Shown here: piece after piece, positions 397-32,973 of the stretch
How the letters are laid out: every line of letters starts with the position of its first letter
Numbering within the stretch: position 1 is the stretch's first letter
Assembly (NCBI GenBank): GCA_043820925.1
Contig: JBDRDL010000038.1
Location: forward strand, 1-56,016
Length of the DNA stretch: 56,016 nt
From: Methanobacteriota archaeon
GTDB taxonomy: Archaea > Hydrothermarchaeota > Hydrothermarchaeia > Hydrothermarchaeales > JACRDW01
Direction: 5' to 3'
Notes under the pieces: model-generated
Database searches by the model: none
The model's input: only the letters and a program-made list of their open reading frames with translations
What the model was told of the DNA's origin: nothing
Translations under genes and position numbers: made by a program

Positions 397-2343
397 ATGA
401 TGAAAGTTTTGGGAGTAGATATCCTCGCAGGTTCAGTTGAATCAAAAACCCAGCCGAAGTATTCTCTTGTTCTGCTCGAGGGCGGAGAAATCCGCAGGAG
501 TGAGGAAGTTACCAGGTACGAAATGCTCAGAATGATAAGGGACATTAAACCTGATAGAATAGCCTGCGATAATGTTTTCGAGCTCTTTTCCAAGGATAGA
601 GCAAGAAAGTTCTTCTTTACCCTGCCCCAGAACACGCAGTTGGTGCAGGTTACGGGCAGCCCAACAGCTCCCGAGCCTCTGCACATAGTTGCGAAGAGGA
701 ACGGAATTCACCTGACTTCGAGAGCTGGTTCTATGGAGGAAGCGCTTGCATGTGCCAGGCTTGCTTACTTGAATGTAGGATTTATAGTCAGTGCTTTCGA
801 GGACGAATGCAGGATACTCGTCACCAGGGCGAGGAGCATGGGAAGAGGAGGTCAGAGCCAAGACCGCTACAGAAGAAAGGTGCACAGCGAAGTTGCGCTG
901 AACATAAAAGAGATAAAGCATCTCTTGGATGAGAAAGGGATTAAGTACGAGCTGAGATGCGCAAAAGCAGACTACGGCTGCTCGAGGGGAGAATTTCGAG
1001 TCTGCTGCCCCAAGTCAGAGCTGCGGGGCATAAGGCAGAGGAAGGGTCCAGACGTTCAGATAAAAATTCTGCCAGTGGAGAAGAAAAAATTAGAATTCAC
1101 ATCTCTTGCACCGAGAGATAAGAGCGTTATTCTGGGCATAGACCCGGGAACAACTACGGCACTTGCAGTCGTGGATTTGGATGGCAAATTACTCGAAGTA
1201 TTCAGCTCTCGGAATTTTTCTTTCAGCAAGGTTCTTTCTTTCACGACCAACTATGATATAGCTATAGTTGCGAGCGATGTTGCACCGGCTCCGAAGTTTG
1301 TGGAAAAGGTTTCCTCTTCGTTGAACTCTGTTTTATTCGCTCCTGCCCAGCCGCTGAGCGTGGCAGATAAGGTTGCAATAGTTAATGAGAAATTCTCCAG
1401 GTCTTCGTATGCAAATCCGCACGAGAGGGATGCGCTTGCGGCTGCAGTAAAGGCATACAGCAACTACAGAAATACGCTGGAGCAAGTTGACAAAAAGCTC
1501 GAGGAGCTGCGGCTAACCAAGCTAAAGAGCGAAGTCAGAAAACTTGTTCTGAAAGGCGAAAGCGTGGAGGGGGCAATAGCCAGGCTTACCAGGCGCAGGG
1601 AAGAGGTCAAGAAGGAGGAAAAGCCGGAGGCTATTCCAGACGAGCACCGCAGAATAATAAAAACTCTGAGAGACGAGATTCAAATTTTGAAAGAGGATAG
1701 GGAAGAGCTTCAGAAAGCGTTGAGAGAGAGCAGGCAAAAGATAGCAGAACTCGAGAGGAAGCTGGCATACGTAACTACCCAAGAGTCCAGAATAATGAGG
1801 AGGGAAAGAGAGATTGCCTACCGGGAGAAAGAAATTCAGGCACTTAAATTTAGACTTTATGAAGAGAAAATGCTCAGGGAAAATCTCCAGAAAAAATTGA
1901 ACGAGCTCCAGAGGATAAACTTGCTTGAGTCGTCTGGCAATTTGAGCCTGCTTAAGGTAATCCCTCAGTTTACGAAAGAAAAAATTTTTGGAGTTAGGGA
2001 TGTGATTAAAAGCGGCGACATGCTTTATATCTTAGACGCAAGCGGAGGAGGCGGCTCAACTGCAGAGAAGCTTTTGGAGCTGAATCCAAGAGCAATAGTT
2101 GCAGACAAAGAAAAAATGTCTCATCCGGCCAGAGAAGTTTTTAAAGATGCGATAATAATCTCGCCAGATAGATTAAAAATAAATCTAATCGAAAATTTCG
2201 GCATAGTCGAGAGCAACGCTCTGGAAGAAGAAATAAAAAAAGAGAGAGAAAGAATGAAAATTGAAAGTGCAGTAAGAAGAGAGAAATTGTTGGAAAGCAT
2301 TATCGAGGAGTATAGGCAAAGGAGAAAAGGGGTGGCTAAATGA
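397..2343 (+). CDS. Conserved archaeal DUF460/COG2433-type protein (RNase H-fold-like N-terminal regions plus long coiled coil)
   Basis: 648-aa ORF. N-terminus MKVLGVDILAGS and internal ILGIDPGTTTALAVVDLDGK resemble RuvC/RNase H-fold motifs. Central region is heptad-rich and charged (EELQKALRESRQKIAELERKL). Confidence 0.7.
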   Translation: MMKVLGVDILAGSVESKTQPKYSLVLLEGGEIRRSEEVTRYEMLRMIRDIKPDRIACDNVFELFSKDRARKFFFTLPQNTQLVQVTGSPTAPEPLHIVAKRNGIHLTSRAGSMEEALACARLAYLNVGFIVSAFEDECRILVTRARSMGRGGQSQDRYRRKVHSEVALNIKEIKHLLDEKGIKYELRCAKADYGCSRGEFRVCCPKSELRGIRQRKGPDVQIKILPVEKKKLEFTSLAPRDKSVILGIDPGTTTALAVVDLDGKLLEVFSSRNFSFSKVLSFTTNYDIAIVASDVAPAPKFVEKVSSSLNSVLFAPAQPLSVADKVAIVNEKFSRSSYANPHERDALAAAVKAYSNYRNTLEQVDKKLEELRLTKLKSEVRKLVLKGESVEGAIARLTRRREEVKKEEKPEAIPDEHRRIIKTLRDEIQILKEDREELQKALRESRQKIAELERKLAYVTTQESRIMRREREIAYREKEIQALKFRLYEEKMLRENLQKKLNELQRINLLESSGNLSLLKVIPQFTKEKIFGVRDVIKSGDMLYILDASGGGGSTAEKLLELNPRAIVADKEKMSHPAREVFKDAIIISPDRLKINLIENFGIVESNALEEEIKKERERMKIESAVRREKLLESIIEEYRQRRKGVAK

Positions 2344-2611: not shown

Positions 2612-2700
2612 GCCGGCATAGCATACGGCTATCTCAAGCTTTAATAGGCGTTGCATTTGGCGCTGTGCTTTCGCTGGCGAACTTGCAGTGGTTTATCTGA

Positions 2701-2735
2701 CCACATAGCATTAAGTCTGCGTAAATGCTATGTGG
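2701..2735. other. Perfect 12-bp stem / 11-nt loop hairpin in a long non-coding gap
   Basis: ccacatagcatt (2701-2712) is the exact reverse complement of aatgctatgtgg (2724-2735). Confidence 0.6.
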
Positions 2736-2839
2736 TGCTAGTTCCGTTACACTTCACTAGTGGCAATGTTTATAATCGGCGTCTGGATAGGGGACTGGTT
2801 GGAAGCCAAGATAAAAAGAGGAAGTTCGGGATAGAGCGG

Positions 2840-2881
2840 AATACCGTCAGGTAGGCGTCAAGCGATTCGGTCTTCCGCAAT
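2840..2881. repeat. Interspersed repeat, module X (aataccgNNaggtaggcgcaa...cttgctNacgcaat family)
   Basis: aataccgtcaggtaggcgtcaagcgattcggtcttccgcaat; homologous copies at 16897, 24092 and 45172. Confidence 0.8.
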
Positions 2882-2923
2882 AGCGAAGCTAGTGCGCAAG
2901 ACCTGCGCTCTTGCTCACGCAAG
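2879..2923. repeat. Interspersed repeat, module Y (aatagcgaagctagtgcgcaagac...ctcttgctNacgcaag)
   Basis: Near-identical copies at 10489 and 16772. Related copies at 4898/4939 and, in reverse orientation, at 32914. Internal hairpin gcaaga/tcttgc. Confidence 0.85.
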
Positions 2924-2974
2924 GAAGATGGCATTTCTCGCCAGCTTCCTATCGGAAATCTTGCTTACGCAATG
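2922..2974. repeat. Interspersed repeat, modules Z+W (aggaagatggca...gccagcttcc + cggaaatcttgcttNcgcaa)
   Basis: Same two-module arrangement at 4974-5027. Z also occurs reversed at 50753-50790 and as a variant at 51711-51737. Confidence 0.8.
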
Positions 2975-3538
2975 CTACTCTATCATTCTTATTATATCTG
3001 CCTTTGTTATTATCCCCACAACCTTGCCTCTTTCCACGACCAGAACCGCAGGATTTACCTCCACCATCTTTGAAACTGTCTTAATGTCTGTGTTCTTGCT
3101 TATAGTTGGGAATCCGTCGTTCATTATCTCTTCGATTCTTTTGACAGGAATTTTTGATATATCTTTTCCTGAAGAAATCTCCTTCACAACTCTGGCTTCT
3201 GAAATGCTCCCAACCTGCGCATTATTTTCTAGTACCGGCAGCTGGGAAATTTCGTACTTCTCCATTAACTTGTTTGCAGTTCCTATCGTGTCGTTGGGCT
3301 TTACGTGAATAACTGGAGACTTCATTATATCAACTGCACAGAGCTCTTTCTTTACCTCCCCGGCTTTAAGCGCATCCAATATTTTCTTGAGAGTCGAAGT
3401 TCTCGGGTCTATGTCTCCGGCTTCAATTCTTGCTATAAGAGACTGGCTGACCTTAGCTTTTGCAGCAAGCTCTGTCTGCGTTAATCCTGCTCTCAACCTG
3501 TAGTTGCGTAAATCTTCAGGACTCGGTATCTCGTACAT
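2975..3538 (-). CDS. XRE-type HTH plus tandem CBS-domain transcriptional regulator
   Basis: N-terminus LRNYRLRAGLTQTELAAKAKVSQSLIARIEAG (HTH_3-like), followed by a CBS-pair-like region (VDIMKSPVIHVKPNDTI..., IITKADIIRMIE). Confidence 0.8.
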   Translation of the reverse strand: MYEIPSPEDLRNYRLRAGLTQTELAAKAKVSQSLIARIEAGDIDPRTSTLKKILDALKAGEVKKELCAVDIMKSPVIHVKPNDTIGTANKLMEKYEISQLPVLENNAQVGSISEARVVKEISSGKDISKIPVKRIEEIMNDGFPTISKNTDIKTVSKMVEVNPAVLVVERGKVVGIITKADIIRMIE

Positions 3539-3539
3539 C

Positions 3540-4223
3540 TCACTTTGCTTCTTTCTCTTTCAGCTTCTTTTCTGCAGCTTTGGCAACCGCATCTTTCAAA
3601 CCCCAGCCTATCGCAATTCCGAGACCAACACCAACACCTATAGCTATTCCATACGCAATTGGAGTTATCAGAGCGTATATTATCGTCGTCTTTATCTTGA
3701 ACTGGTCGAGCGCCATGACGAGTATCATGAGATACAGCGAGATTCTTATCACGAAGGTTACGGCATTTATATACTCAATTTTCAGCTCTTTTGTCGTAGT
3801 TTTGATGAACCCTACGATAAAATCAACTGCAATCAAGCCGCCGAGCAGTATTATAATCCCTGCGACCAGGTTCGGAATATACAGCAGGGCATCCCTCAGA
3901 AATGCGGTTAGAAACTCTATGTTGAGAATATTTACCGCTGCCATCAGAGCAACTGCATAAATGAACCATCTTATCATCAGATCAGAAATACCGACTAACT
4001 GCACTCCGCTTTTTTCAATATACTCCCCAACAACCGTTTTCCTTATTAATTCGTTTAATCCGGCCTTGTCCAGTGCATCGGATATTGCCCTTCCGAAAAC
4101 TCTGCCGACGTACAATCCAACTAACAGCACTGCCAAAGCAGCAATTATTTTTAGAATATACATTGCAGCGTCGGCTACCGCTCTTCCAGCAGTAGCGTCC
4201 AGGAATGAAATCATATCTACCAT
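3540..4223 (-). CDS. Integral membrane protein with conserved-TM-helix repeats (MscS-associated type)
   Basis: Multiple hydrophobic spans and a lysine-rich C-tail. Start moved to ATG at 4223 because GGAGG lies 7 nt upstream (rc of 4231-4237). Confidence 0.6.
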   Translation of the reverse strand: MVDMISFLDATAGRAVADAAMYILKIIAALAVLLVGLYVGRVFGRAISDALDKAGLNELIRKTVVGEYIEKSGVQLVGISDLMIRWFIYAVALMAAVNILNIEFLTAFLRDALLYIPNLVAGIIILLGGLIAVDFIVGFIKTTTKELKIEYINAVTFVIRISLYLMILVMALDQFKIKTTIIYALITPIAYGIAIGVGVGLGIAIGWGLKDAVAKAAEKKLKEKEAK

Positions 4224-4272
4224 ATAGCAACCTCCTTGTTTGAAATAATGCAAAACCAGAATATAAAGCTTA

Positions 4273-4746
4273 TTATGCTGGAATCAGAGCTATCCTGTCC
4301 TTTACAATATTCTTGAGAACATTCTTTTTCTTTTCTCCGCTTCTTGCTACGGTTCGAATTTCTTTCTCGTCTATGCCAAACAGTTCTTTTATTCGCTCGC
4401 ATTTTTCTTCGTTGATTTCCAGCAAAGCTTCCTCGCATTCATATTCTTTCAGGATTTCCTTCGGAAATTCCTCACAAATTAAAATCACTTCCCTCGAATT
4501 TCGCAGACCAAAAATCTCTATGGCTTTTTTTATCTGCCTCTGGGCGCTTGCCCTTGCCAGAACTTCTATAAAAAAATCATTGCTGAAATTCTCCCCCCGC
4601 TTGAACGCTTTTTCAGCCTGCGAAATTGCAAATTCGATGTGCTCCCTGCCAGCCACGAAGCGAGAGTCGATTATCTGCACGTCTTTGTATTTCTTCAGAA
4701 CTTCCTTGTTTAGTGGTTTTTTGCATTTGAGAGGAAGGATTTTCAT
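4273..4746 (-). CDS. cgi121: KEOPS complex subunit Cgi121
   Basis: EVLARASAQRQIKKAIEIFG and LEINEEKCERIKELFGI match the conserved Cgi121 core as remembered from the M. jannaschii orthologue. Confidence 0.8.
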   Translation of the reverse strand: MKILPLKCKKPLNKEVLKKYKDVQIIDSRFVAGREHIEFAISQAEKAFKRGENFSNDFFIEVLARASAQRQIKKAIEIFGLRNSREVILICEEFPKEILKEYECEEALLEINEEKCERIKELFGIDEKEIRTVARSGEKKKNVLKNIVKDRIALIPA

Positions 4747-4897
4747 TTCGAATCCACTCGTCGAACTTGCTATCGCATTCGCTTCGTAGAAGCGAGAGCA
4801 CGAGTATCGCTCATGCTTTCGTTCTTTCGGAACGAGTGCTTCGTTCTCCTCCTGTCTTCACCCTTGGTTGCAGTTCGCTTCGCTCACTGTTTTCCCC

Positions 4898-4970
4898 AGC
4901 GTAAGCTGGGCGCAAGACTCACGGACTTGCTCACGCAAGCGTAAGCTGGGCGCAATACCTTTGCGCTTCC
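4898..4970. repeat. Two tandem Y-like repeat copies
   Basis: agcgtaagctgggcgcaagactcacggacttgctcacgcaag followed directly by agcgtaagctgggcgcaatacctttgcgcttcc. Confidence 0.8.
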
Positions 4971-4973
4971 GAC

Positions 4974-5027
4974 AGGAAGATTGGCAAACCCGCCAGCTTC
5001 CTTGCGGAAATCTTGCTTGCGCAAGGG
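4974..5027. repeat. Repeat modules Z+W
   Basis: aggaagattggcaaacccgccagcttcc + ttgcggaaatcttgcttgcgcaaggg; parallels 2922-2974. Confidence 0.8.
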
Positions 5028-5047
5028 CTTTTTTTAAAAGGGCTCAT

Positions 5048-5824
5048 TTACATTCTCGCCCCTTTCAGTGCGTCTTTGCACCCGCACTCCCGCTCTTCCG
5101 GAATATTATTTATTACCTCGACCAAAATCTTCTTCAGATTTTCTTGATTTTTCTTTACGACGTCTTTCACTTCTGTAGCTGTGAGCTTCTTCTTGGCTAT
5201 GCCTGCAGCGAAGTTGGTTACTGTGCATATTGCAGCATAACAAATCTCAGCCTCTCTTGCCAGAGTTACTTCTGGCACGCCAGTCATTCCAACGATGTCG
5301 CACCCGAGTTTGTGGAGTACTCTAATCTCTGCAGGCGTTTCGAATCTGGGACCTTGAGTGCAGGCATAGACTGCACTGCTGAAGACTTTTCCTGCGATTT
5401 TCCCACTAGCTGTCGCTAGGGCTTTCCTTAACTCTGGGCAGTATGGTTCAGAAACATCTATGTGAACTACTTCCTTGTCGTAAAAAGTAGAATCTCTGCC
5501 TTTAGCGAAGTCTATGAAGTCGTGAGGTATAACAATGTTTCCGGGAGCAAGTCTTTTGTTGATTGCACCAACAGAATTGGTCGAGATTATCCTTTCAGCC
5601 TTGAGCATTTTGAGAGCAAATATATTAGCCCTGTAGTTGACTTTGTGGGGCGGTAAAGCATGATTTTTTCCATGCCTCGGCAGAAATAGTATCTCATTTC
5701 CCAGCAGCTCTCCGACAGCGATTTCTGGAGAGCTTCCGTACGGAGTTTTTATTATCCTCCTCCCGAGCTCTTTAAAAATTTTCGGGTCATAAATTCCAGT
5801 TCCGCCTATGACTGCGATGCCCAT
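5048..5824 (-). CDS. mtnP: S-methyl-5'-thioadenosine phosphorylase
   Basis: MGIAVIGGTGIYD..., FLPRHGKNHALPPHKVNYRANI, GCDIVGMTGVPE: PNP/MTAP family signatures. Confidence 0.9.
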   Translation of the reverse strand: MGIAVIGGTGIYDPKIFKELGRRIIKTPYGSSPEIAVGELLGNEILFLPRHGKNHALPPHKVNYRANIFALKMLKAERIISTNSVGAINKRLAPGNIVIPHDFIDFAKGRDSTFYDKEVVHIDVSEPYCPELRKALATASGKIAGKVFSSAVYACTQGPRFETPAEIRVLHKLGCDIVGMTGVPEVTLAREAEICYAAICTVTNFAAGIAKKKLTATEVKDVVKKNQENLKKILVEVINNIPEERECGCKDALKGARM

Positions 5825-6898: not shown

Positions 6899-8134
6899 TT
6901 ACACCAGGTTGAATCTTCTCAGCAGATATATATCTTCCAGTGTTAGCTTCTCTCCTTTTTTGAATCTCCCATAAACGCTTTTGGCTTCTTCCTTTAATTC
7001 TCTATCGCTTTTTGGCTTTAGCTCAGTTTCAGCTTCCACCCTCTTAATACTTTTCTCAAGTTCTTTAATCTTCAGCACGCAAGAGTTCAGTTCCTCATTC
7101 AGCTTGTCCAGCGCAGGGTCTATTTCCTTTCTCTTGCTGTTCAGTTCGTCTATTTTGGCTTCTGCTTCCTTAATTTCTGCAACCGCCTGCAAGAATTTTT
7201 CATGCTGCTGCTGGGATTCCTTGGATAATTTTAAAATTTCCTCGTGCACTTTTCTTGAGCTGCTTTTATGCCTGTCGATTTCTTTTGAAAGTTCTATCAG
7301 CTCCTTGTACCCTTTCAGCTCCTGATTTAGCTTTTTAATTCTGTCTACGAGAGCATCTTCCTTTTTGATTTCCATTACGCTTGTCTGAAGCTTCCATTCC
7401 AGAGCGTCTATTTCTTTCTGGATTTTCTCGTAGTCCCCCTTTGGAGCACTTTCCTTGAGCTTTTTGTATTTTGCAACCAGAGCTTTTACGTGCTCATTCA
7501 TTTTTTCCCTTTCTTCTTTTAACTTTTTAACCTCCCAGTTGAGCTCGTCCCTGAGCTTTTTGGATTCGTTCGCTTTCTTGTTTTTTGTCTTTATTTTCTG
7601 TATCAATTCTCTCTTTTTATTTCCGAGCTCTCCGAGGGCTGCCTTCTTCTCAACAATGTCCCTCTTCATGTCCTGCATTCTCAGCTCGAGCATGTCTCCC
7701 TCCCTTATCATCGCCTCCATGTCGAGCTCTCCAAAAATATAGGGGAGGATTCTGGTAAGGTCTTTCTCGTATATTATAACGTCTGCTGCCTTGCCGGGCG
7801 CCGGCTTCGAATTAAATGCCATGCACAGTCCTGCTTTTTCGAAAGCTGATAGGTCATTTGCACTGGAGACTACTGCGCTGTCTCGCAGCGAAACGCCAGC
7901 TTTCTTTACTATCTTCTCAAATGCCTTGGTTCTGGAGTCTTCACCGGTTAGCGGTCCGGAAATCTCGTTGGTAATCGAGTAGTCCAAGCCCAGCTCTTTC
8001 TTTATCGTGTCCGCAACCGCACTATTTCCGCTGATTATGCCTGTTTTTATTCCCCTCTCCTTTAGCTTTGCAATCGTCTCCTTTGCTCCTTCCATTATCA
8101 ACGTGCCGTCAAGGTCGAACAGAACTAACTTCAT
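6899..8134 (-). CDS. HAD-superfamily phosphatase (PSP-like) fused to a long archaeal coiled-coil region
   Basis: HAD motif I MKLVLFDLDGTL and later SGNS / K / SSANDL motifs. The C-terminal ~270 aa are charged heptad repeats (COG1340-like). Confidence 0.75.
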   Translation of the reverse strand: MKLVLFDLDGTLIMEGAKETIAKLKERGIKTGIISGNSAVADTIKKELGLDYSITNEISGPLTGEDSRTKAFEKIVKKAGVSLRDSAVVSSANDLSAFEKAGLCMAFNSKPAPGKAADVIIYEKDLTRILPYIFGELDMEAMIREGDMLELRMQDMKRDIVEKKAALGELGNKKRELIQKIKTKNKKANESKKLRDELNWEVKKLKEEREKMNEHVKALVAKYKKLKESAPKGDYEKIQKEIDALEWKLQTSVMEIKKEDALVDRIKKLNQELKGYKELIELSKEIDRHKSSSRKVHEEILKLSKESQQQHEKFLQAVAEIKEAEAKIDELNSKRKEIDPALDKLNEELNSCVLKIKELEKSIKRVEAETELKPKSDRELKEEAKSVYGRFKKGEKLTLEDIYLLRRFNLV

Positions 8135-9440: not shown

Positions 9441-10451
9441 TCAGCATAAGAGTATATTAATTTTGCTTGCCGCTTTTTTAAGCCTGTTCATTATCGCAAG
9501 TCCGATTCCTTTTTCCTCAAAGTTTTCTGAAATTATTACGTCCACGCCTTCTTCATCGAGTTTTCTTAAAGCATTGAATAAATTTCTCGCAACCTCTCGC
9601 AGGTTTTTTCTGCTTCCAACGACTTCGACTATTCCGCTGTACATCCGGGCATTTTCCCTCGTCGCCAAAATACCTATTTTTTTTCCTGACAGTTTCCTAA
9701 CAATCTCTGGAATCTTCTCTGCATCTAATAAGATTAACTCCGCTTTTGGAGCATAGTGGCGGTATTTCATCCCGGGAGAGCGGGGTTTTCCAAGCGGAAT
9801 GGACTGCTTTTCAACTTTTCCAAGCGCTCTTTTGAGTTCTTCAAAAGTGACACCGCCAGGTCTCAGAATAGCCGGCACAGAAGCAGTTAAATCTAACACC
9901 GTTGATTCCAGTCCTATATTCGCTGCACCGCCGTCGATTACTGCATCGATTTTTCCCTTTAAATCCTGCATCACGTGCTTCGCACTTGTCGGACTCGGCC
10001 TGCCTGAGATGTTTGCGCTCGGCGCTGCGATAGGAACGCCAGATGCAGAGATTAGACCAAGCGCAGTTTTATTGTCCGGCATTCTTATCGCAACTGTATC
10101 CAGACCTGCGGTTGTCACGCCCGGCAGTACTTCTGACTTTTTTAAAATCAGAGTTAAAGGACCTGGCCAGAATCTCTCAGCCAGAATTTTTGCTTTCTCT
10201 GGAACTTCTTTTGCAAGTTTTTTCAGCTCTTCTTTTTTTGCGATGTGCACTATTACCGGATTATCCAGGGGTCTCCCTTTAACTTCAAAAATTTTCTCAA
10301 CCGCTTCAACATCTAAGGCGTTTGCTCCAAGCCCGTACACTGTCTCAGTCGGGAATGCGACGAGACCGCCTCTTCTTATAATCCCTGCAGCAGTTTGAAT
10401 TTTTCTCTTGCTCGGTCTCCGGGGGTTTACTTTTAAGAGAATTGTCTCCAT
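9441..10451 (-). CDS. sua5: Threonylcarbamoyl-AMP synthase Sua5/TsaC with Sua5 C-terminal domain
   Basis: GGLVAFPTETVYGLGANAL, WPGPLTLIL, SANISGRPSPTSA, plus a ~120-aa C-terminal domain. Confidence 0.9.
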   Translation of the reverse strand: METILLKVNPRRPSKRKIQTAAGIIRRGGLVAFPTETVYGLGANALDVEAVEKIFEVKGRPLDNPVIVHIAKKEELKKLAKEVPEKAKILAERFWPGPLTLILKKSEVLPGVTTAGLDTVAIRMPDNKTALGLISASGVPIAAPSANISGRPSPTSAKHVMQDLKGKIDAVIDGGAANIGLESTVLDLTASVPAILRPGGVTFEELKRALGKVEKQSIPLGKPRSPGMKYRHYAPKAELILLDAEKIPEIVRKLSGKKIGILATRENARMYSGIVEVVGSRKNLREVARNLFNALRKLDEEGVDVIISENFEEKGIGLAIMNRLKKAASKINILLC

Positions 10452-10488: not shown

Positions 10489-10533
10489 AATAGCGAAGCT
10501 AGTGCGTTAGACCCGCGCTCTTGCTTACGCAAA
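10489..10533. repeat. Interspersed repeat, module Y
   Basis: aatagcgaagctagtgcgttagacccgcgctcttgcttacgcaaa. Confidence 0.85.
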
Positions 10534-10775: not shown

Positions 10776-10817
10776 GCGTCTGCCCGAACCAGATACACGC
10801 TGTTAGGCGGCATTGCA
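10776..10817. repeat. Left inverted repeat flanking the hicAB cassette
   Basis: Its rc, gcaatgccgcctaacagcgtgtatctgg, matches gcaatggcgcctaacggctgagcgtatctga at 11329. Confidence 0.65.
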
Positions 10818-10820
10818 GCT

Positions 10821-11060
10821 TTATACTCTTTCATAGACCTTTAGAAATTCCTCTCTTGGTATTCCGGCTTGTCTGCAAATCGTTCTTAAAGTAGAGCCTT
10901 TTATCTTCTTGTGATTTGGCATGGTTAAAGGCGTTTTGCTGCCATCTGGATTTTCTCTAACCATTGAAATATGGTTTCCCACTCTTACGACTTTAAATCC
11001 CAGAATTTCAAAAGTCTTTATAACTTTCCGTTTTGGCGCATCCTTCGGAAACTTCATCAC
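10821..11060 (-). CDS. hicA: HicA-family mRNA interferase toxin
   Basis: KVIKTFEILGFKVVRVGNHISM...PNHKKIKGSTLRTICRQAGIPREEF matches the YcfA/HicA pattern. Confidence 0.85.
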   Translation of the reverse strand: MMKFPKDAPKRKVIKTFEILGFKVVRVGNHISMVRENPDGSKTPLTMPNHKKIKGSTLRTICRQAGIPREEFLKVYERV

Positions 11061-11272
11061 ATCGCCACTTCTGCAATGAAGGTTTCTATGATCTCTCCCG
11101 TTTCAAAAGCCTCTTTTCCAAAAGTTTCTATGTGAAACTTGATAGCAGATTTCACATCCGCGAGCGCTTCCTCGTAAGTATCACCTTCTCCAACCACCAC
11201 ACCCTTTAATCCCAGAGGATATGCCACATAGCCTTCAGGATGTTTTTCAACGATTATTTTTATTTGTCTCAT
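11057..11272 (-). CDS. hicB: HicB-family antitoxin (UPF0150-type)
   Basis: EKHPEGYVAYPLGLKGVVVGEGDTYEEALADVKSAIKFHIE; 4-nt ATGA overlap with hicA. Confidence 0.8.
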   Translation of the reverse strand: MRQIKIIVEKHPEGYVAYPLGLKGVVVGEGDTYEEALADVKSAIKFHIETFGKEAFETGEIIETFIAEVAM

Positions 11273-11326
11273 TTTCTCACCGATCTTTTATTTGATTTCA
11301 GCTTTATAAAGGATATAATTAACCTC

Positions 11327-11424
11327 GGCAATGGCGCCTAACGGCTGAGCGTATCTGAAGTTCCGACCGCAGGGAGGAATTTGGGCGGAGTGCCGAAGGC
11401 ACGAAGCCAGATATGCTCTGTTAT
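11327..11424. mobile_element. MITE-like hairpin element (right hicAB flank)
   Basis: cctaacggctgagcgtatctg ... cagatatgctctgtta are imperfect inverted termini about 45 nt apart; both arms are homologous to the element at 10776-10817. Confidence 0.5.
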
Positions 11425-11465
11425 ATGAAGTTGCCCCCATTTCCTTTTCACTGCTTCTTATCTGA

Positions 11466-11984
11466 TTATTGTTGTCTGTTTAATATTATATTACTCCAAC
11501 CTTCCAAGCTACGATCGCCTATTTCGTACTTTTTGAGTGATTGAATTTGTACTCTCAATTCTTCAGTTGAGAATTTTATTAATGAAGTAATAAGCGGACT
11601 AATAGCTTTTTGCCTTGATTTAGCACGAACTTCTTGCAACCCCAAGCGTCTTGCAAATTCGTTAATGTCTCTTAGGGATGGTAAAACTGTCTTTGCAACT
11701 AAGTCGGTATAAAAGTTCATTAATAGTTGGTACTTTCCAAGATCTACGCCTTCAAGAGTAATTAGCGCCCTCGGAATCGATTGCCCTTGTTTTGGTCTTG
11801 TCTCTCGTGTCGTTTTTGGAATAGTTCGGGCTATCTTCGCAACCTCTGTTAGAATAAGTGGCAGGCGTTGTCTCATTTCTGGTGATGAAATAGATTCTGC
11901 AAGCAACTCAAAAGGTTCAGGACCGTATTTTTTTAGCAATTTTACTATATCGACCAACAAATCTAGTTCTTGCTTTTTTCTCAT
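11466..11984 (-). CDS. Uncharacterised 172-aa protein coupled to the ParA-like ATPase
   Basis: 4-nt ATGA overlap with the upstream ATPase gene. Helical N- and C-terminal parts flank a basic, low-complexity centre (TIPKTTRETRPKQGQSIPR). No domain recognised. Confidence 0.7.
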   Translation of the reverse strand: MRKKQELDLLVDIVKLLKKYGPEPFELLAESISSPEMRQRLPLILTEVAKIARTIPKTTRETRPKQGQSIPRALITLEGVDLGKYQLLMNFYTDLVAKTVLPSLRDINEFARRLGLQEVRAKSRQKAISPLITSLIKFSTEELRVQIQSLKKYEIGDRSLEGWSNIILNRQQ

Positions 11985-12829
11985 AGACCTATCCTTCCCG
12001 CAAATTCCTCAGCAAATGCATGAAATTTACTAGCTTGAGACGACCTTGCATAAGATGTGCTAAAAATTGGGCGTCCTTCTCGAGCTCCTTTTGGATATGA
12101 ACGCGAGTAGCTGACTTCAGCGTTAAAAACGTACCATCCATGCTTTGAGGCTATACTTTTTACCTCGTTCTTGGACTTAACCTCCTCCGGAACGTATCCT
12201 GATGTATGATTGAAAACTATCCCAGCAAGATCTAAATTGTGATCTCCATAAGGGCCGACCTTGAATTCTTCCATAGAACGTACTAGTAGTGGAAGGCCTA
12301 TCGAAGATAGATACTCTGGCTTGACGGGAACAAGTAAGTAATCACTTGCCAGATAGGCTGCTGTAGTTAAAACGGACTCAGTCGGTGCACAATCCTGCAG
12401 AATAAGATCATACTCATTTTCAATCTTTGAAATGAGTTTTGCAAGGAGACTCTCCTTCTGCCCAGGATTTCGCAATGAATATGCCAGCTCTAAACGAGAG
12501 GGAATCAGATCGATACAACTGCCATCAGAATATGAAACAACATTGTAGAGCACCGATTTTGGAAGTAGCGGTATTGGTTTACTTTTGCCTGGCGTGTGTG
12601 TAAGCTGTTCGAATACATCCCAAACTGTAGGAATGTTTTTCTTAAGAATATCTTCATATTTGCGGACTCCAATAAGGTACTGACTCGCATTGAATTGTGG
12701 ATCTAGGTCAACAACCAATACTTTCTTGTTCCATTTGGACAGCCCAGCAAACTGCCAAGCTAGATTGACAGCCAATGTAGATTTTCCTACACCGCCTTTC
12801 ATGTTGATTAACGAAACTTTCTTAGCCAT
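11981..12829 (-). CDS. ParA/Soj/MinD-family deviant Walker A ATPase
   Basis: INMKGGVGKSTLAVNLA (deviant Walker A), VVDLDPQFN (A'), LILQDCAPT (Walker B). GGAGGTGA lies 5 nt upstream of the ATG. Confidence 0.85.
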   Translation of the reverse strand: MAKKVSLINMKGGVGKSTLAVNLAWQFAGLSKWNKKVLVVDLDPQFNASQYLIGVRKYEDILKKNIPTVWDVFEQLTHTPGKSKPIPLLPKSVLYNVVSYSDGSCIDLIPSRLELAYSLRNPGQKESLLAKLISKIENEYDLILQDCAPTESVLTTAAYLASDYLLVPVKPEYLSSIGLPLLVRSMEEFKVGPYGDHNLDLAGIVFNHTSGYVPEEVKSKNEVKSIASKHGWYVFNAEVSYSRSYPKGAREGRPIFSTSYARSSQASKFHAFAEEFAGRIGL

Positions 12830-12907
12830 GTTTAATCACCTCCTATATTGTAATACCTTGCGATTATATTTGCTTTTTGTTTAACGCGGGCAATTTCATA
12901 TAACTCC

Positions 12908-12988
12908 TTATATACGAACATGGTTCGCCTATCCTGCCGGTTTATATACGAACTTCGCACTGTCTCCTTAAGGAGCGAAGTTTATATT
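12908..12988. promoter_or_regulatory. Iterated TATA-like / palindromic repeats in the parA-bud32 divergent intergenic region
   Basis: ttatatacgaac at 12908 and 12942. Palindrome cgaacatggttcg at 12915-12927. Near-palindrome aacttcgc..ctccttaaggag..gcgaagtt at 12951-12982. tttatatt about 25 nt upstream of the bud32 ATG. Confidence 0.5.
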
Positions 12989-13011: not shown

Positions 13012-13629
13012 ATGGAAATGATAGGCAAGGGCGCAGAGGCGAACATTTACTTGCAGGAGGGCAGGGTAATCAAGGAGAGGATTTCCAAGGCTTACAGGGT
13101 AAAAGAATTAGACGAAGCGCTCAGAAAGACGAGAACCAAAAGGGAGGCTAAATTAATCTCTCTTGCGAGAAGAGCAGGTGTCCCAACGCCTTTTATCCTG
13201 GACGTAAATAATCCAGATACCACCGTCGAAATGAGCTTTGTTAGGGGCATACAGGTGAAAAAACTGCTGAACAAAGCATCAAAAAAAGATAGAGAGCGAA
13301 TTTGCAGGGAAATTGGCAGAAGCGCTGGAAAACTGCACGGTAATAATATAATTCACGGCGATTTGACAACTTCTAATATGATTCTCGCAGACAACAGGAT
13401 TTACTTCATAGATTTCGGTCTCGGAGAAGTAAGCGAGGCAGTCGAGGATAAGGGAGTAGATTTGCTGGTATTTAAAAAATCGTTGCGTTCTACACACTAT
13501 AAATTCGAGAATGAGTGTTTCAAAGCTTTTGTTAACGGTTACTCCAAAGAATATAGAGCGTGCAAAAACGTTCTGGAGAGATTAAAAATAATAGAGCTGA
13601 GGGGGAGATATTTCGCCGAGCGGTTTTAG
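13012..13629 (+). CDS. bud32: KEOPS subunit Bud32 (atypical RIO-like kinase), stand-alone
   Basis: IGKGAEANIY (P-loop-like), TRKEAKLISLARRAGVPTP, IIHGDLTTSNMIL, FIDFGLG, LRGRY tail. Confidence 0.9.
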   Translation: MEMIGKGAEANIYLQEGRVIKERISKAYRVKELDEALRKTRTKREAKLISLARRAGVPTPFILDVNNPDTTVEMSFVRGIQVKKLLNKASKKDRERICREIGRSAGKLHGNNIIHGDLTTSNMILADNRIYFIDFGLGEVSEAVEDKGVDLLVFKKSLRSTHYKFENECFKAFVNGYSKEYRACKNVLERLKIIELRGRYFAERF

Positions 13630-14224: not shown

Positions 14225-14776
14225 ATGGTCTACTTCATAACCTCGAGTATGCACAAATATCTGGAAACAAGGGAAATATTTAGAAGCCACGGGCTTGAAT
14301 TAGGGAGAATATCCAAAAATTACACAGAAATACAGGCAGATACCCTTGAAGAAGTAGTAAAAGAGGCTCTCAAGCGCATAAACAGGAAAAAAGTATTTAT
14401 TGAGGATGCCGGTATTTTTATAAAAGCCCTAAAGGGCTTCCCTGGCGTTTACTCACGCTACATCGAGGACACAATCGGAAATCAGGGAATTTTAAGATTG
14501 ATGCGTGATGTTAAAAAGCGCAGTGCTATCTTCAAGTCAGTCGTGGGCTACAGAGACGCTGAAATAAAGCTCTTCAAGGGCGAAGTTTTCGGCAGCATAG
14601 CCTTCGAAGAGAGAGGCAGCAGGGGCTTCGGCTACGACCCCATATTCATACCAAAAGGTTATAATAAGACCTTTGCAGAGGATTATGAGCTGAAGCAGAG
14701 AATTTCGCACAGGAGAAAAGCAGTAGAAAAACTTGCAAAATTTCTCAGCACTTCGGCATCAAGCTTTTCACAATAG
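14225..14776 (+). CDS. Non-canonical purine NTP pyrophosphatase (Ham1/RdgB/ITPase)
   Basis: FITSSMHKYLE, EDAGIFIKALKGFPGVYS, GFGYDPIF, SHRRKA. Confidence 0.85.
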   Translation: MVYFITSSMHKYLETREIFRSHGLELGRISKNYTEIQADTLEEVVKEALKRINRKKVFIEDAGIFIKALKGFPGVYSRYIEDTIGNQGILRLMRDVKKRSAIFKSVVGYRDAEIKLFKGEVFGSIAFEERGSRGFGYDPIFIPKGYNKTFAEDYELKQRISHRRKAVEKLAKFLSTSASSFSQ

Positions 14777-14792
14777 CAGGTACGGATGATGC

Positions 14793-14896
14793 CTCGTGCC
14801 GAGACCTACCGCTACACTTGCCGAAGGCAAGTGGTAGAAAAGCGGTCAAGAGCGAGTGAGCAACGAGTGAAACGAGTTGTGAACGAGGGATTGAAA
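14793..14896. repeat. Composite repeat block forming the rps15 upstream region
   Basis: ctcgtgccgagacc also occurs at 51569. Hairpin ctacacttgcc gaa ggcaagtggtag. Quasi-tandem acgagtga-like units: gcgagtga, acgagtga, acgagttgtga, acgaggga. Confidence 0.7.
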
Positions 14897-15349
14897 ATGG
14901 CAAGGATGCATTCAGGTAAGAGAGGCAAATCAGGTTCGACAAGACCTTACAGAACCTCGCCCCCGGAGTGGGTAGAGTATCAACCGCAGGAGCTGGAAAG
15001 TCTCATAGTCAAACTTGCGAAGAAGGGCGAGAATCCGAGCGTAATTGGTGCAATATTAAGAGACCAGTACGGCATACCAAATGTGAAGTTGCTCACAAAA
15101 AAGAGGATAACCGAAATTTTGGATAAAAAGGCAAAAAGAGAGATACCAGAGGATTTGATGAATTTAATTAAAAAAGCAGTAAATTTGGAGAAGCACCACA
15201 TAGCAAAGCCTCAGGATATGACTGCCAAGCGGGGCACGCAGTTAGCTGAATCAAAAATAAAGAGGCTTGCGAAGTACTACGTAAGGGAAGGCAAATTACC
15301 TGCTGGCTGGCGGTACGACCTTGCAAAAGCCAAGCTGCTGGTGAAATAG
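14897..15349 (+). CDS. rps15: 30S ribosomal protein S15 (uS15)
   Basis: [17 protein letters not shown]... is a typical archaeal S15 N-terminus. The track ORF start at 14786 lies in repeat sequence and was rejected. Confidence 0.9.
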
Positions 15350-15351: not shown

Positions 15352-16776
15352 ATGCCGGCTCCAAAACAAATGCTCAGGGAGTTTGAGGAAGCTTCAAAAG
15401 TTTTGAAAGAATTAATTGAGAAAGGCAAGGTTGTTAGACTAATAACCCACAACGATGCAGACGGGCTTAGTGCTGGAGCAATACTCCACAAGAGCCTGAT
15501 TAGGGAAAACTGTGCAGTGCATACGAGAAGCGTTAAGCAGCTTGACGAGGGAGCAATAAAAGATGCTTCGGCAAATAGCCAGGAAGTCATCATAATCGCA
15601 GACTCTGGCAGCGGGCAGCTGGAGGAGATAAAGGAGCACCTGCTTGAGAAGTACCACGTAATAGTTTTAGACCACCACCAGCCTAAGGAAATAAAGCATG
15701 AAAATTTATTCCACATAAATCCCCACAACCACGGCATTGATGGAGCCAGAGAAATCAGCGGTGCAGGAATGGCGTATTTATTTTCTAAGGCGGTAAATCC
15801 AAGCAATGTGGATTTATCGCCGTTGGCAGTCGTAGGTGCGCTGGGAGATATTCAGGATGCTGGCGGCGAGCTTGTCGGGCTGAACAGAGATATACTTGAA
15901 GACGGGGTAAAGGCAGGGGTTTTAAAGGCTGAGAAGGATTTACGCTTGTTTGGAAGGCAGACGAGACCGCTGTACAAGGCGATAGAATATACAACAGAAC
16001 CGTTCGTCCCGGGCTTGAGCGGAAGCGAGTCAGCATGCGTGCAGTTTCTCAACGACCTCGACATACCTGTTAAAAAAAATGATAAATTTACGATGCTTGC
16101 GGACTTGGACAAAGATGAAAGGCAGAGGCTGGCAACTGCGCTAATACTCAAGATGATCGAATACAAAGTTCCTCCAAAATTTGCAGAGAGCATAGTAGGC
16201 GAGGTTTACACTCTGCTGAATGAAGAGAAGAGGACCCCTCTCAGAGATGCAAGAGAATTTGCAACTCTCCTCAACGGCTGCGGCAAGCACGATAAAAACG
16301 GCATCGGTATTGCGGTCTGCTTGGGAGAGAGAGGCGAGCTTTATCAGAAATCACTCGAAATGCTCAAAGAGCACAAGGGCTATCTGTTCTTCTGCTACAA
16401 CTGGATTTCCAAGAACATAGGCAGAATCAAGGATGCAGAAGTTTTATACTACCTCTATGCAAATAATGAAATCAACGAAAGCGTTTTAGGCACAGTAGCT
16501 TCGATGATTCTAAATTCAAGAATACTAACGCCCATAAAGCCGATTATTGCATTCTCTGAAACAGAAGACGGTGCAATCAAGGTATCTGCGAGGGGCACGA
16601 GAGAGCTGATAGAGAGGGGTTTAAATCTGGGCAAGGTAATGCTGTATGCTTCTGAAAAGACTGGCGGCGAGGGCGGAGGTCACGATATCGCTGCCGGAGC
16701 AAAAATCGAGAAGGGGAAAGAGGAGGAGTTCCTGAGGCATGCAAAAGAGGAAATAAAAAGGCAGTTGCATGAATAG
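15352..16776 (+). CDS. DHH-family RecJ-like nuclease (archaeal GAN/Cdc45-like)
   Basis: ITHNDADGLSAGAIL, IIIADSGSG, VLDHHQP, GGGHDIAAGA. The rps15-recJ-like adjacency is typical of euryarchaea. Confidence 0.85.
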   Translation: MPAPKQMLREFEEASKVLKELIEKGKVVRLITHNDADGLSAGAILHKSLIRENCAVHTRSVKQLDEGAIKDASANSQEVIIIADSGSGQLEEIKEHLLEKYHVIVLDHHQPKEIKHENLFHINPHNHGIDGAREISGAGMAYLFSKAVNPSNVDLSPLAVVGALGDIQDAGGELVGLNRDILEDGVKAGVLKAEKDLRLFGRQTRPLYKAIEYTTEPFVPGLSGSESACVQFLNDLDIPVKKNDKFTMLADLDKDERQRLATALILKMIEYKVPPKFAESIVGEVYTLLNEEKRTPLRDAREFATLLNGCGKHDKNGIGIAVCLGERGELYQKSLEMLKEHKGYLFFCYNWISKNIGRIKDAEVLYYLYANNEINESVLGTVASMILNSRILTPIKPIIAFSETEDGAIKVSARGTRELIERGLNLGKVMLYASEKTGGEGGGHDIAAGAKIEKGKEEEFLRHAKEEIKRQLHE

Positions 16777-17086
16777 CGAAGCTAGTGCGCAAGACTTACG
16801 CTCTTGCTTACGCAAGGCGAAAGCTAAAATTGAGTTTAGATATAAGGACGCAAAAACAGCGCAGAAAATTTCTTATTTGTTAGAAGTCGACAATAAAATA
16901 CCGAAGGTAGGCGCAACACCATTGCGGCTTGCTATCGCAATTGCTCCTAAAAAAATAAAAACAGAAAGCAGGGGCAACAGAGTAATAACGCACATAGAGC
17001 ACGAGAAATTGGGTACCTTGCTCGCAACAATAGACGACCTGCTGTTCTGCGAGAGATTGATTGAGGATTTGGTATGCTGGACATAA
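16769..17086 (+). CDS. pcc1: KEOPS subunit Pcc1 carrying repeat-derived segments
   Basis: AKAKIEFRYKDAKTAQKISYLL...RGNRVITHIEHEKLGTLLATIDDLLFCERLIEDL follows the Pcc1 beta-alpha-beta-beta-alpha pattern. The only canonical in-frame start is the ATG at 16769. Confidence 0.7.
   Translation: MNSEASAQDLRSCLRKAKAKIEFRYKDAKTAQKISYLLEVDNKIPKVGATPLRLAIAIAPKKIKTESRGNRVITHIEHEKLGTLLATIDDLLFCERLIEDLVCWT
16772..16816. repeat. Interspersed repeat, module Y, spanning the recJ-like stop and pcc1 codons 2-16
   Basis: aatagcgaagctagtgcgcaagacttacgctcttgcttacgcaag. Confidence 0.85.
16897..16942. repeat. Module X repeat copy inside the pcc1 reading frame
   Basis: aataccgaaggtaggcgcaacaccattgcggcttgctatcgcaatt aligns with the copies at 2840, 24092 and 45172; translated in frame as IPKVGATPLRLAIAI. 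Confidence 0.8.
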
Positions 17087-22394: not shown

Positions 22395-23651
22395 ATGAAG
22401 GCGATAATTCTTGCAGCAGGTAAAGGAACTCGGCTGGAACCCCTGACAGAAGATACCCCGAAGTGCATGCTTCCTCTGGCAGGCAAGCCTATCATGGAGC
22501 ACGTTATCAAAGCTGTCAGAAAGGCAGGAATTAGAGAGGCTGTATTAATTGTCGGATGCAAGGAAGAAAAAATAAGAGAATACTTCGGCGACGGCTCTAA
22601 CTTCGGTATCAAGATTGAATACGCCTCCCAAAAACAGCAGCTCGGCACTGCGCACGCAATCGGTACGATTGAGCTGAACGAGGATTTTCTGGTCCTGAAT
22701 GGAGACACGCTGATATCAAGCGACTGCATAGACAGCGTGCTTTCTGCGCACAGCGCAGGCACGCAAGACTCGGCAGCCACTCTCGGACTGAAGGAAGTTG
22801 AGGAGCCCAGCAATTACGGCGTGGTCAGGCTTGAGAATAGCAGAGTAGTCGAAATAATCGAAAAGCCAAAAGGATATGTTTCAAATTTAGCGAATGCTGG
22901 TATCTATGCATTTTCTCCAAAAATTTTCGGGGCAATAAAAAAGACCAAAAAGTCAAAGCGGGGCGAGTACGAGATTACTTCTTCGATTGGCATTTTGATT
23001 AAGGAAGGCGAAGTCGTAAGGGGGGTTAAAATTAGAGGCATGTGGAGCGATATAGGAAATCCCTGGAATTATTTAGACTCCAACCGGGAGATGCTGAATG
23101 GGATGGAAGAAAGAATCTGGGGCGAAATTGAAGAATTCGTGAAGCGAAAGGGAAAGCTGTACCTGGGGAAGAAGTCGATAATAAAATCAGGCAGCTATAT
23201 AGAGGGACCGGTTTACATAGGCGACAACTCAATAATAGGTCCGAATGCGTATCTGCGTAGCTTCACTTCTGTATGTGATAACTGCAAAATTGGAAGCGGT
23301 GTGGAGGTGAAAAATTCGATAATAATGGACCGGACCAGCGTCTCGCACCTATCGTACATAGGAGATTCAATAATTGGCAAAAATTGCAACTTTGGTGCTG
23401 GCACTCTTGTAGGAAATCTGCGCTTGGACGAGGAGAACGTGAAGATGCGAATCCGCAATGAGCTGAAGGATACCGGCAGAAGAAAGTTGGGCTGCGTAGT
23501 CGGCGATAACGTTAAAATCGGATTGAACGTTATGATAAATGCAGGGCGCAAAATCGGCAGCAACAGCTTAATCGGCCCAGGAGTCATAGTTTATGATGAC
23601 ATTCCTCCGAATTCTTTCATTCTGCAGAAGCAGGAGCTGAGGAGGAAGTAA
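22395..23651 (+). CDS. Bifunctional sugar-1-phosphate nucleotidyltransferase / left-handed beta-helix acetyltransferase (GlmU-like)
   Basis: MKAIILAAGKGTRL plus C-terminal hexapeptide repeats. Start set at ATG 22395 (AAGGAG upstream) rather than the track start at 22374. Confidence 0.85.
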   Translation: MKAIILAAGKGTRLEPLTEDTPKCMLPLAGKPIMEHVIKAVRKAGIREAVLIVGCKEEKIREYFGDGSNFGIKIEYASQKQQLGTAHAIGTIELNEDFLVLNGDTLISSDCIDSVLSAHSAGTQDSAATLGLKEVEEPSNYGVVRLENSRVVEIIEKPKGYVSNLANAGIYAFSPKIFGAIKKTKKSKRGEYEITSSIGILIKEGEVVRGVKIRGMWSDIGNPWNYLDSNREMLNGMEERIWGEIEEFVKRKGKLYLGKKSIIKSGSYIEGPVYIGDNSIIGPNAYLRSFTSVCDNCKIGSGVEVKNSIIMDRTSVSHLSYIGDSIIGKNCNFGAGTLVGNLRLDEENVKMRIRNELKDTGRRKLGCVVGDNVKIGLNVMINAGRKIGSNSLIGPGVIVYDDIPPNSFILQKQELRRK

Positions 23652-32955: not shown

Positions 32956-32973
32956 GGAGCTGAGCAAATGAAG

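Follow-up and report, generated by a model that had tools for sequence, protein, structure and literature searches.

The archaeal DNA considered here, contig JBDRDL010000038.1 (56,016 nt; the window), has a G+C content of about 44%, and its seryl-tRNA synthetase (SerRS) has its nearest named relatives, at about 70% identity, in the Hydrothermarchaeales. About 50 open reading frames (ORFs) were scanned in Pfam, and all of them are housekeeping genes, including those for parts of KEOPS, Sua5, SHMT, SerRS, ribosomal proteins, Hyp maturation proteins, TatC, and NadA, NadB and NadC. No tRNA, tmRNA or Rfam-recognised RNA was found in the window. Scattered among these genes, mostly between them and in either orientation relative to transcription, are short hairpin-forming repeats of four kinds, X, Y, V and Z, of which the first three are subfamilies of one discrete element of 41-44 nt (most commonly 42 nt). 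They make up a family of very short mobile hairpin elements that nest in one another, restricted to one lineage and not described before; the family belongs within the REP/PATE/RPE kind and makes no new category.

A first-pass annotation, made from the letters of the window, had listed copies of X, Y, relatives of Y, Z and a further module W, and had taken them for an interspersed hairpin-forming family distinct from CRISPR. Every one of these copies is present, displaced by at most 2 nt, and the general description holds. X lies at 2842 (interrupted) and, as 42-nt copies, at 16899-16940, 24094-24135 and 45174-45215, and Y at 2881-2922, 10491-10532 and 16774-16815 (42 nt each), all on the plus strand. 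The relatives of Y are of the V type and lie at 4897-4938 and 4939-5024 (plus strand; the second is interrupted) and, reversed, at 32915-32956 (42 nt, minus strand). Z lies at 2923, 4975, 51712 and, reversed, at 50754; W lies at 2951 and 5003, and a CTCGTGCCGAGACC module at 14793, 51569 and, reversed, at 51652. The census gives 11 X, Y or V copies and four Z copies in 56 kb; copies occur about once per 5-6 kb. With at most one mismatch, the shared 3' core CTTGCTNACGCAA occurs 15 times in the window against 0.46 expected, a count reached in none of 100 shuffles, and a 27-nt Z pattern has three matches against 0.00 expected; recurrence of a 10-nt Z fragment on its own is not significant. Short solo matches of the TTGCTATCGCAA type within genes (35075, 39716, 49994), which may just encode Leu-Ala-Ile-Ala, were left uncounted. 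A CRISPR or tandem array was rejected on the irregular spacing of the copies (40 nt to 21 kb), and an assembly artefact was ruled out by the presence of the same insertions in independent NCBI, JGI, ENA and Logan assemblies.

The X, Y and V elements consist almost wholly of small hairpins. The consensus of X is TACC-GNNA-GGTA GGCGCAAGAC ... GTCTTGC TNAC GCAA, that of Y is TAGC-GAA-GCTA GTGCGCAAGAC ... TCTTGC TNAC GCAA, and that of V is (CC)CAGC-GNNA-GCTG(GG) GCGCAA ... TTGCGC TTGC TCAC GCAA; a further variant of the left hairpin, CCCGGC-GTGA-GCCGGG, is found in a related contig (L134). Across 36 copies, base pairing in the left hairpin holds in 99.3% of cells, and two of its columns change in a compensatory manner between subfamilies (UA in 27 and CG in 8 copies; CG in 21 and GC in 15). 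The right hairpin, CTTGC-NNNN-GCAA(G), has a pattern that is invariant across subfamilies (93% of cells paired), whereas the central stem is subfamily-specific, as is the tag next to it (GTAG, 5' of the stem, in X, CTAG in Y and CTGG in V). The element always terminates in CGCAA. As a whole it is quasi-palindromic, its 5' end TAGCGAAGCTAGTGCGC resembling the reverse complement of its 3' end TTGCGTAAGCAAGAGCGC. Folding energies of the two strands are nearly equal (means of -13.7 and -14.3 kcal/mol), and the strand asymmetry of folding that was sought to tell RNA from DNA was not found. Z, a hairpin distinct from these, measures about 43 nt and reads TTCCG CAA GGAAGATGGC loop GCCAGCTTCC TAA CGGAA, with one conserved A.G mismatch in its stem.

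How these units combine is seen best at 2842-2972, where the copies form a nest, X[Z[Y]], that ends 2 nt from the stop of a CBS/HTH gene (2975-3538, minus strand). The 31-nt 5' part of X (2842-2872), starting with the hairpin TACC-GTCA-GGTA, is interrupted by Z, whose left foot TTCCGCAA (2873-2880) is in turn cut off from the rest of Z by Y; the foot is recognised by comparison with the intact Z at 50746-50788 and in contigs L012, L020 and L037. Y (2881-2922; nhmmer score 44.9 bits) follows the ...CGCAA of this foot. The remainder of Z (2923-2957) reads GGAAGATGGC-loop-GCCAGCTTCC then TATCGGAA, and at 2958-2972 come ATC and the 3' arm of the interrupted X (TTGCTTACGCAA), which had been described as W. 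Joining 2842-2872 to 2961-2972 rebuilds an X of 43 nt. A V element at 4897-4938, with the left hairpin CCCAGC-GTAA-GCTGGG, is followed in tandem by a second V (4939-5024) that is interrupted by Z (4967-5009), giving V[Z] and a second W at 5010-5024. The point at which Z entered is identical in the 2842 nest and the 4939 V, namely the right-arm hairpin at CTT^GC. The reverse nest, Z[X], with X in the loop of Z, is present in multiple copies in two related datasets introduced below, JACRDW01 and Ga0180009 (L012, L020, L034, L037, L052, L068, L120). Copies are found singly, in head-to-tail tandem (4897/4939; 7663/7704 of L043; L074) or nested. The earlier picture of modules concatenated as building blocks therefore gives way to one of elements of about 42 nt nested in each other or inserted in tandem after ...GCAA, and W (CGGAAATCTTGCTTNCGCAA) dissolves as a module: it comprises the end of Z and, next to it, the 3' arm of the X or V into which Z went.

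The elements are discrete units that are gained or lost precisely between close relatives. Contigs of relatives with 88-96% protein identity to the window were gathered through homologues of SerRS and MTA phosphorylase; L043 (96%), L044 and L131 (93%) stand at 93-96%, and L046, L047 and L048 at 88%. At the site of the Y element at 10491-10532, L043, L044 and L131 read atatttaaagatgctCAA^agcatgaagcat, with identical flanks and a length difference of exactly 42 nt. L131 lacks the 2842-2972 nest downstream of its CBS/HTH gene. Where L131 and L132 have the TAG stop of MTA phosphorylase directly followed by the ATG of CGI-121, the window has a 300-nt block (4747-5047). In it are Z, both V elements, a GCCCTTTTAAAAAAAGCCC box and a leader rich in purines that closes with a Shine-Dalgarno-like site and ATG; L133 and L134 have other versions of this block. 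At the 3' end of CGI-121, L134 has a 40-nt V-like element and L131 a 10-nt fragment, neither of which is in the window. The spacer between Ham1 and S15 is highly polymorphic: it has TCTCAGCACTTCG and CTCGTGCCGAGACC modules in the window (14743-14806, plus strand) and V, X and other modules in L043, and its module content differs in all four genomes compared.

A small difference was noted in an NTP-transferase gene, where the window has, relative to L043 and L044, an in-frame extra of 12 nt, CAGGCACGCAAG (22756-22767), the last 8 nt of which equal the 3' end of X/V plus G. This segment may be a remnant or a footprint of an element.

The first-pass annotation placed the repeats at gene boundaries, which holds in that most copies lie at gene ends, but the Y at 16774 and the X at 16899 lie inside an ORF. 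This ORF (16769-17086), located between a DHH/RecJ-like gene and serS, is Pcc1-like: its empty version, of 77 aa in the 88% relatives L046-L048, has a weak match to Pfam Pcc1 (E = 0.004). In the window it is 105 aa long, the excess being Y (16774, 14 codons at the 5' end of the ORF) and X (16899, subtype X3, encoding IPKVGATPLRLAIA), 42 nt each and in frame. L043 has Y at the first site and, at the second, a 24-nt in-frame derivative of a different X subtype. The right half of this derivative (L043 9840-9867, corresponding to window 16899-16940) is of another subtype (TTACGGTCTTGCTCACGCAA), which suggests re-insertion or conversion between copies and not simple decay. A third confirmed in-frame copy is in JACRDW01 (L040), in the linker that joins zinc ribbon and HTH_3 domain in an MBF1-like protein; it agrees with the window copy at 16899 at 40 of 42 nt, is in the same frame and encodes the same peptide, IPKVGATPLRLA. 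A fourth copy, of 43 nt, near the N-terminus of an ORF in L108 is ambiguous. Copies of 42 nt amount to 14 codons with open frames, and they therefore persist within genes as insertions that add a peptide in frame. This is the length of each of the three confirmed intragenic copies, whereas 10 of 28 X/Y copies are of 43-44 nt, which points to selection for frame. Elements also supply stop codons: the TAG of the DHH/RecJ-like gene (16774) is made of the first three bases of Y, and the TGA codons of tatC (45179) and nadA (32920) come from the X at the end of tatC (44444-45181) and the V at the end of nadA (32017-32922).

Being short, hairpin-rich and inside ORFs, the intragenic copies might be taken for archaeal bulge-helix-bulge introns that are removed from the mRNA. 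Such introns require pairing of the exons on both sides, however, and the flanks are unrelated between sites; moreover, the three intragenic copies and the 24-nt derivative keep the reading frame, which splicing would not need. On anatomy and frame conservation this explanation was rejected, and we regard it as barely credible.

The family is confined to one lineage as far as it could be followed. A scan of 185,579 species-representative genomes with a degenerate pattern found many copies only in the metagenome-assembled genome (MAG) JACRDW01 (NC_groundwater_1682_Pr3_B-0.1um_46_15), on 10 contigs; the other matches were single chance hits in bacteria, although the pattern is strict and diverged relatives elsewhere could escape it. 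Among JGI metagenomes, about 22 contigs of a single sample (Ga0180009, 3300015370) carry the repeats. A profile built from six window copies and run with nhmmer on about 0.93 Mb of fetched DNA gave 54 hits (47 non-redundant), all in loci of the window, JACRDW01, Ga0180009 and sample ERZ27247117, and none in about 100 chance loci. Collections of viruses, plasmids and phages gave no match except one chance hit in a viral contig. Rfam 15 gave no hit at gathering score over the whole window, and at E <= 1 over 2700-5100 the one hit was to a snoRNA, by chance and away from the repeats. Literature searches turned up no account of repeats in this lineage. Copies thus do extend beyond the window, and they match no described family in Rfam, plasmids or phages.

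The high incidence of copies at gene ends brings up another explanation, that the repeats are structured RNA, either cis-regulatory hairpins (terminators, mRNA stabilisers) or small RNA genes, spread or kept for a useful fold. The loops of the left hairpin are of the GNRA type (GTGA, GCGA, GTAA, GATA) with compensatory changes in the stem, and a related hairpin, ACTTGC-GNNA-GCAAGT, recurs in sense in the leaders of many genes. The copies, however, lie both sense and antisense to flanking genes and occupy spacers of the convergent as well as the divergent type; the left arm and the right arm have their GNRA-like loops on opposite strands, and the strands fold about equally. Also at odds with an RNA function are the copies in frame within ORFs, the exact presence or absence of copies among relatives at 93-96% and the failure to match Rfam even at E <= 1. 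Covariation is equally expected if the elements are single-stranded DNA substrates of a transposase. We consider an RNA origin improbable.

The repeats could instead be architectural or regulatory sites recruited by the host, bound by a host protein in the way that BIMEs bind IHF or gyrase, conserved by that protein and spread by recombination. Their conservation is indeed very high: comparison of the window with JACRDW01 gives 85-98% identity for the repeats and about 69% for coding DNA, and 42-nt V copies at non-orthologous places in L018 and L127 are identical. Their density in the window would suit such a role as well. Against this, the inserted unit is exact and of constant length, its junction is sequence-specific, copies nest in other copies and in a transposase gene, copies are found within coding regions, and density differs strongly between close relatives. 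Host-recruited sites are for these reasons a very unlikely explanation.

The junctions themselves follow simple rules. The 3' terminus CGCAA is invariant under differing 5' flanks (GAA, TAA, CAC, CAG, CCA), and therefore there is no target-site duplication of 2 nt or more. The 5' flank at positions -4 to -1 has G in 16, C in 20, A in 27 and A in 20 of 28 X/Y sites, so that its consensus, GCAA, is the element's own 3' end; insertion thus takes place directly 3' of AA, with GCAA favoured. Since every element ends in CGCAA, each insertion recreates a target, which explains both the head-to-tail tandems and the nests. These rules also bear on the possibility that the repeats are classical MITEs, moved by cut-and-paste by a DDE transposase that recognises terminal inverted repeats. 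The resemblance of the 5' end to the reverse complement of the 3' end and the near-perfect inverted repeat of Z would fit MITEs; the lack of a target-site duplication and the asymmetric target preference, confined to the 5' flank, would not, and neither a DDE transposase nor a longer element sharing the ends was found in 365 kb of lineage DNA. The MITE explanation is thus unlikely.

A different class of enzyme is suggested by a transposase gene that the repeats themselves have entered. A tblastn search with an approximate IS608 TnpA query, which served as a lead only, reached contig L052 of Ga0180009 (Ga0180009_10066290), a repeat-carrying contig on which a Y1 transposase gene (1003-1533, minus strand) is split by Z[X]. 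Intact copies of the gene in L135 (8283-8729) and L136 (117-590) serve as empty sites, and the net insertion in L052 is 84 nt. Without the insert the L052 protein is 149 aa long and matches Y1_Tnp (PF01797) over the full profile (E = 1.2e-26). The insertion sequence (IS) copies in L052, L135 and L136 have a typical IS200 layout: a left hairpin GACC-TTTA-GGTC-GGGG, tnpA, and a right hairpin followed by AGTAnGTCAT. In this IS family the left end is preceded by GCAA in five of six copies and by GCGA in the sixth, in the unrelated L139, with no conservation further upstream. A flank conserved in this way is, in the IS200/IS605 group, the tetranucleotide that serves as target and cleavage site (PMC3119063). 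The lineage thus has a single-strand HUH transposase whose apparent target equals both the preferred target and the 3' end of X, Y and V. A RAYT or IS200-type transposase elsewhere in the genome had been anticipated; what was found in a relative at 93-96% is an IS200-type Y1 gene, but it belongs to an ordinary multi-copy IS with its own ends and is not a repeat-flanked RAYT.

Taken together, X, Y and V and the hairpin Z are best read, with fair confidence, as lineage-specific, non-autonomous mobile DNA of about 42 nt that is REP/PATE-like and was probably moved in single-stranded form by a Y1 (HUH) transposase. According to this reading, an element would be excised and integrated as single-stranded DNA, with catalysis in trans by a Y1 enzyme (IS200/IS605 or RAYT-like) that has its gene at another place in the genome, recognises the hairpins and cuts after GCAA. 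The elements would be essentially selfish, with any role as RNA hairpin, terminator or protein-binding site being secondary. More speculatively, Z may target the terminal palindromes of X and V and the tnpA gene of IS200.

Several observations weigh against this reading. There is no transposase in the window among the ORFs scanned in Pfam. Nor did the 365 kb of available lineage DNA yield an autonomous element bounded by X-type ends; a search there for left-half and right-half X matches no more than 6 kb apart returned only the X[Z[Y]] nest. The sole Y1 gene that is physically linked to a repeat is disrupted by that repeat, which brings a TGA within the insert. The left end of the IS matches X (TACC-GTGA-GGTA-GGCG) at only 10 of 16 positions, and the right ends (...GGGGAGTAnGTCAT in the IS) are unrelated; the IS hairpins being only loosely X-like, a simple fusion of the ends of that IS does not account for X, Y and V. 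Canonical IS200/IS605 cleavage sites lie outside the hairpins, and the sites here coincide with the hairpin foot or fall within it. Where the flanking DNA is unique, the target loosens to NNAA (TGAA, TCAA, CGAA, GTAA, ACAA etc.), and GC at -4/-3 comes largely from insertions after the ...CGCAA of another element or the TTCCGCAA of Z. Strand bias is weak, 9:2 in the window and mixed elsewhere, and without an outgroup the difference at 10491 is unpolarised, being either a gain or a precise excision. Finally, the same IS family occurs without the repeats in L139, an unrelated genome of 61% GC, so that the IS alone does not imply repeats. Given the loose likeness between IS and X, the unrelated right ends, the example of L139 and the lack of an autonomous X-ended element, the link between Y1 enzymes and the repeats is one that we infer.

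A bolder version of the reading, which we think possible but rather doubtful, is that the 42-nt unit is among the smallest self-contained transposable units known, having no parent IS but a dedicated enzyme, an archaeal RAYT-like Y1 protein or a new one, that cuts after GCAA at the hairpin foot. Its 14-codon length would have been selected, allowing it to colonise essential genes (KEOPS Pcc1, MBF1) as harmless peptides, and Z would parasitise or disable both the elements and IS200 transposase genes, the whole forming a multi-layer ecosystem of mobile elements in a lineage of archaea that is uncultured.

In behaviour, the closest counterparts among known systems are the archaeal PATE and SMR elements and the in-frame palindromic elements of Rickettsia. 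PATEs (palindrome-associated transposable elements) and terminal-only IS605 derivatives occur in Haloquadratum walsbyi, where a 52-bp terminal-only version appears mobile (PMC3119063). Like PATEs, the present elements are archaeal, too short for a transposase, have palindromes at or near their termini, no target duplication and a conserved boundary oligonucleotide, coexist with IS200/IS605 transposase genes, and have boundaries that are defined by strain-specific insertions (PMC3119063). The testable defining attributes of a PATE are thus all present: the target is not duplicated, the termini are palindromic, an oligonucleotide marks the boundary and nothing is encoded. Unlike PATEs, the elements here are smaller (42 nt), their hairpins reach the very ends, some copies are in frame within genes, and a parent IS with related ends did not turn up; in sequence the two are not similar. 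Z recalls SMR-A of Haloquadratum, an inverted-repeat hairpin without evident target duplication that inserts into the terminal palindromes of small elements (PMC3119063), in that Z occurs at the same point in two X/V copies and, as Z[X], inside an IS200-type tnpA. Z, however, is about 43 nt long against about 110 bp for SMR-A, is unrelated to it in sequence, and had no empty site available for its stand-alone form. Insertion of SMR-A has been discussed as a possible defence against IS605-type elements (PMC3119063).

Resemblance to bacterial REP/BIME mosaics had been proposed at the outset. The likeness stands insofar as REPs, BIMEs and the REPIN-RAYT system also comprise short, abundant, imperfect palindromes that are mostly extragenic, form mosaic clusters and are occasionally intragenic (PMC3733652, PMC5581495, PMC3116915). 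Presumed mobilisation by Y1 enzymes, long persistence in a lineage with conserved sequence and the GTAG located 5' of the central stem of X are further common points. Membership, however, does not follow. REPs bear, on one side of their stem-loop, a GTAG (or CGTC) tetranucleotide tag that is conserved (PMC3733652), and here there is no uniform GTAG/CGTC tag; the clusters are nested or head-to-tail and not inverted doublets (REPINs); and the Y1 genes seen in the contigs covered (L052, L135, L136) are multi-copy IS200-like units with their own hairpin ends and not single-copy, repeat-flanked RAYTs. The host is an archaeon, whereas REP surveys list bacterial phyla only (PMC3733652, PMC5581495, PMC3116915). 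The in-frame copies are akin to the Rickettsia palindromic element (RPE), a palindrome inserted in frame into unrelated housekeeping genes with a conserved peptide (PMC10969869), just as IPKVGATPLRLA is found here in Pcc1-like and MBF1-like proteins. RPEs, however, are about 100-150 bp long, bacterial and CGTC-tagged (PMC10969869); the present elements are unrelated in sequence, have no CGTC terminus, and are mostly intergenic, with three confirmed in-frame cases.

Larger assemblies of modules accompany the elements. Intergenic blocks between tightly coupled genes begin right after ...ATGA with the box GCCCTTTTAAAAAAAGCCC, which could be TATA-like or oligo-T, and end in ...GGATTGAAAATGA, by which the downstream gene gains a new ribosome-binding site and ATG. 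Such blocks are at window 5025-5047 (minus strand), L133 10940-11070, L134 10705-10870 and L043 15375-15400, two being in tandem in L133 and L134. In running from ...ATGA to a Shine-Dalgarno-like site and ATGA they are like the MIRUs of Mycobacterium, intercistronic repeats that overlap stop and start codons; MIRUs, however, are tandem minisatellites of 46-101 bp and not nested hairpin elements. A conserved leader also stands before many genes in all lineage genomes. It comprises GGGTCAAGAC..., a purine-rich stretch (corresponding to acgagtga-like units noticed earlier) and GAGGAGTGGATTGAAAATG, which is a long Shine-Dalgarno-like match with the start codon. Copies are at window 44411-44497, 14860-14899, 4744-4863 (minus strand) and 51493-51605 (minus strand), and at L043 15436-15521; the 87-nt leader that precedes tatC shares 97.7% identity with an L043 copy from another locus. 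The 5' leader with its ribosome-binding site and ATG may thus be a portable module.

The spacer between hypD and hypA (51505-51822) is a composite nested palindrome, in which an inverted pair of TCTCAGCACTTCG modules (51505, 51810) surrounds an inverted pair of CTCGTGCCGAGACC modules (51569, 51652). The latter pair encloses a V-like element (51606-51648, minus strand), and a Z-like hairpin is at 51704-51745. Past its Pfam domain, hypD (51790-52959, minus strand) has 10 or so final codons that overlap the inverted TCTCAGCACTTCG module (51790-51823), and the C-terminal tail and stop codon of hypD may be repeat-derived. The ORF caller lengthens hypA by about 86 codons through this repeat cluster. 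A stand-alone Z of 43 nt lies at 50746-50788 (minus strand), just past the gene at 49723-50736. The X at 24094-24135 is between a deaminase gene and a PurD-like gene, and both of these genes (window 23652-25944) are absent from the 96% relative L043. Elsewhere, the stretch from sua5 to a RIO-type kinase (10776-12967) has a ParA-like gene in the window and an MscS channel gene in L043. Genes for t6A/KEOPS functions are located within 13 kb of each other: Cgi121 (4273-4746), Sua5 (9441-10451), the Bud32-like RIO-type kinase (13012-13629) and the Pcc1-like ORF (16769-17086). Repeats are in or beside Cgi121, Sua5 and the Pcc1-like ORF; the Bud32-like kinase has none noted next to it. The HAD/DUF7121 gene (6899-8134) shows in-frame indels at 7773-7805 (33 nt, as 11 + 22) and 7925-7961 (33 nt) relative to L043, L131, L133 and L134, their sequence being unrelated to the repeat family.

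For those working with such MAGs, the repeats have a practical side: they break assemblies and mislead gene callers, in that they add length to ORFs and contribute starts and stops. They also offer unusually clean natural before-and-after sites for a 42-nt unit, and they show how mosaic clusters can originate, by insertion that recreates its own target. Colonisation of conserved archaeal genes in frame, donation of stop codons and the presence of a repeat inside an IS200 transposase gene add to what such units can do to a genome, and the elements are a defined substrate for studying the specificity of archaeal Y1 transposases. Most of what is known of small palindromic mobile repeats (REP/REPIN, PATE, RPE) comes from bacteria and haloarchaea, and this family extends their range to a deep-subsurface lineage related to the Hydrothermarchaeota.

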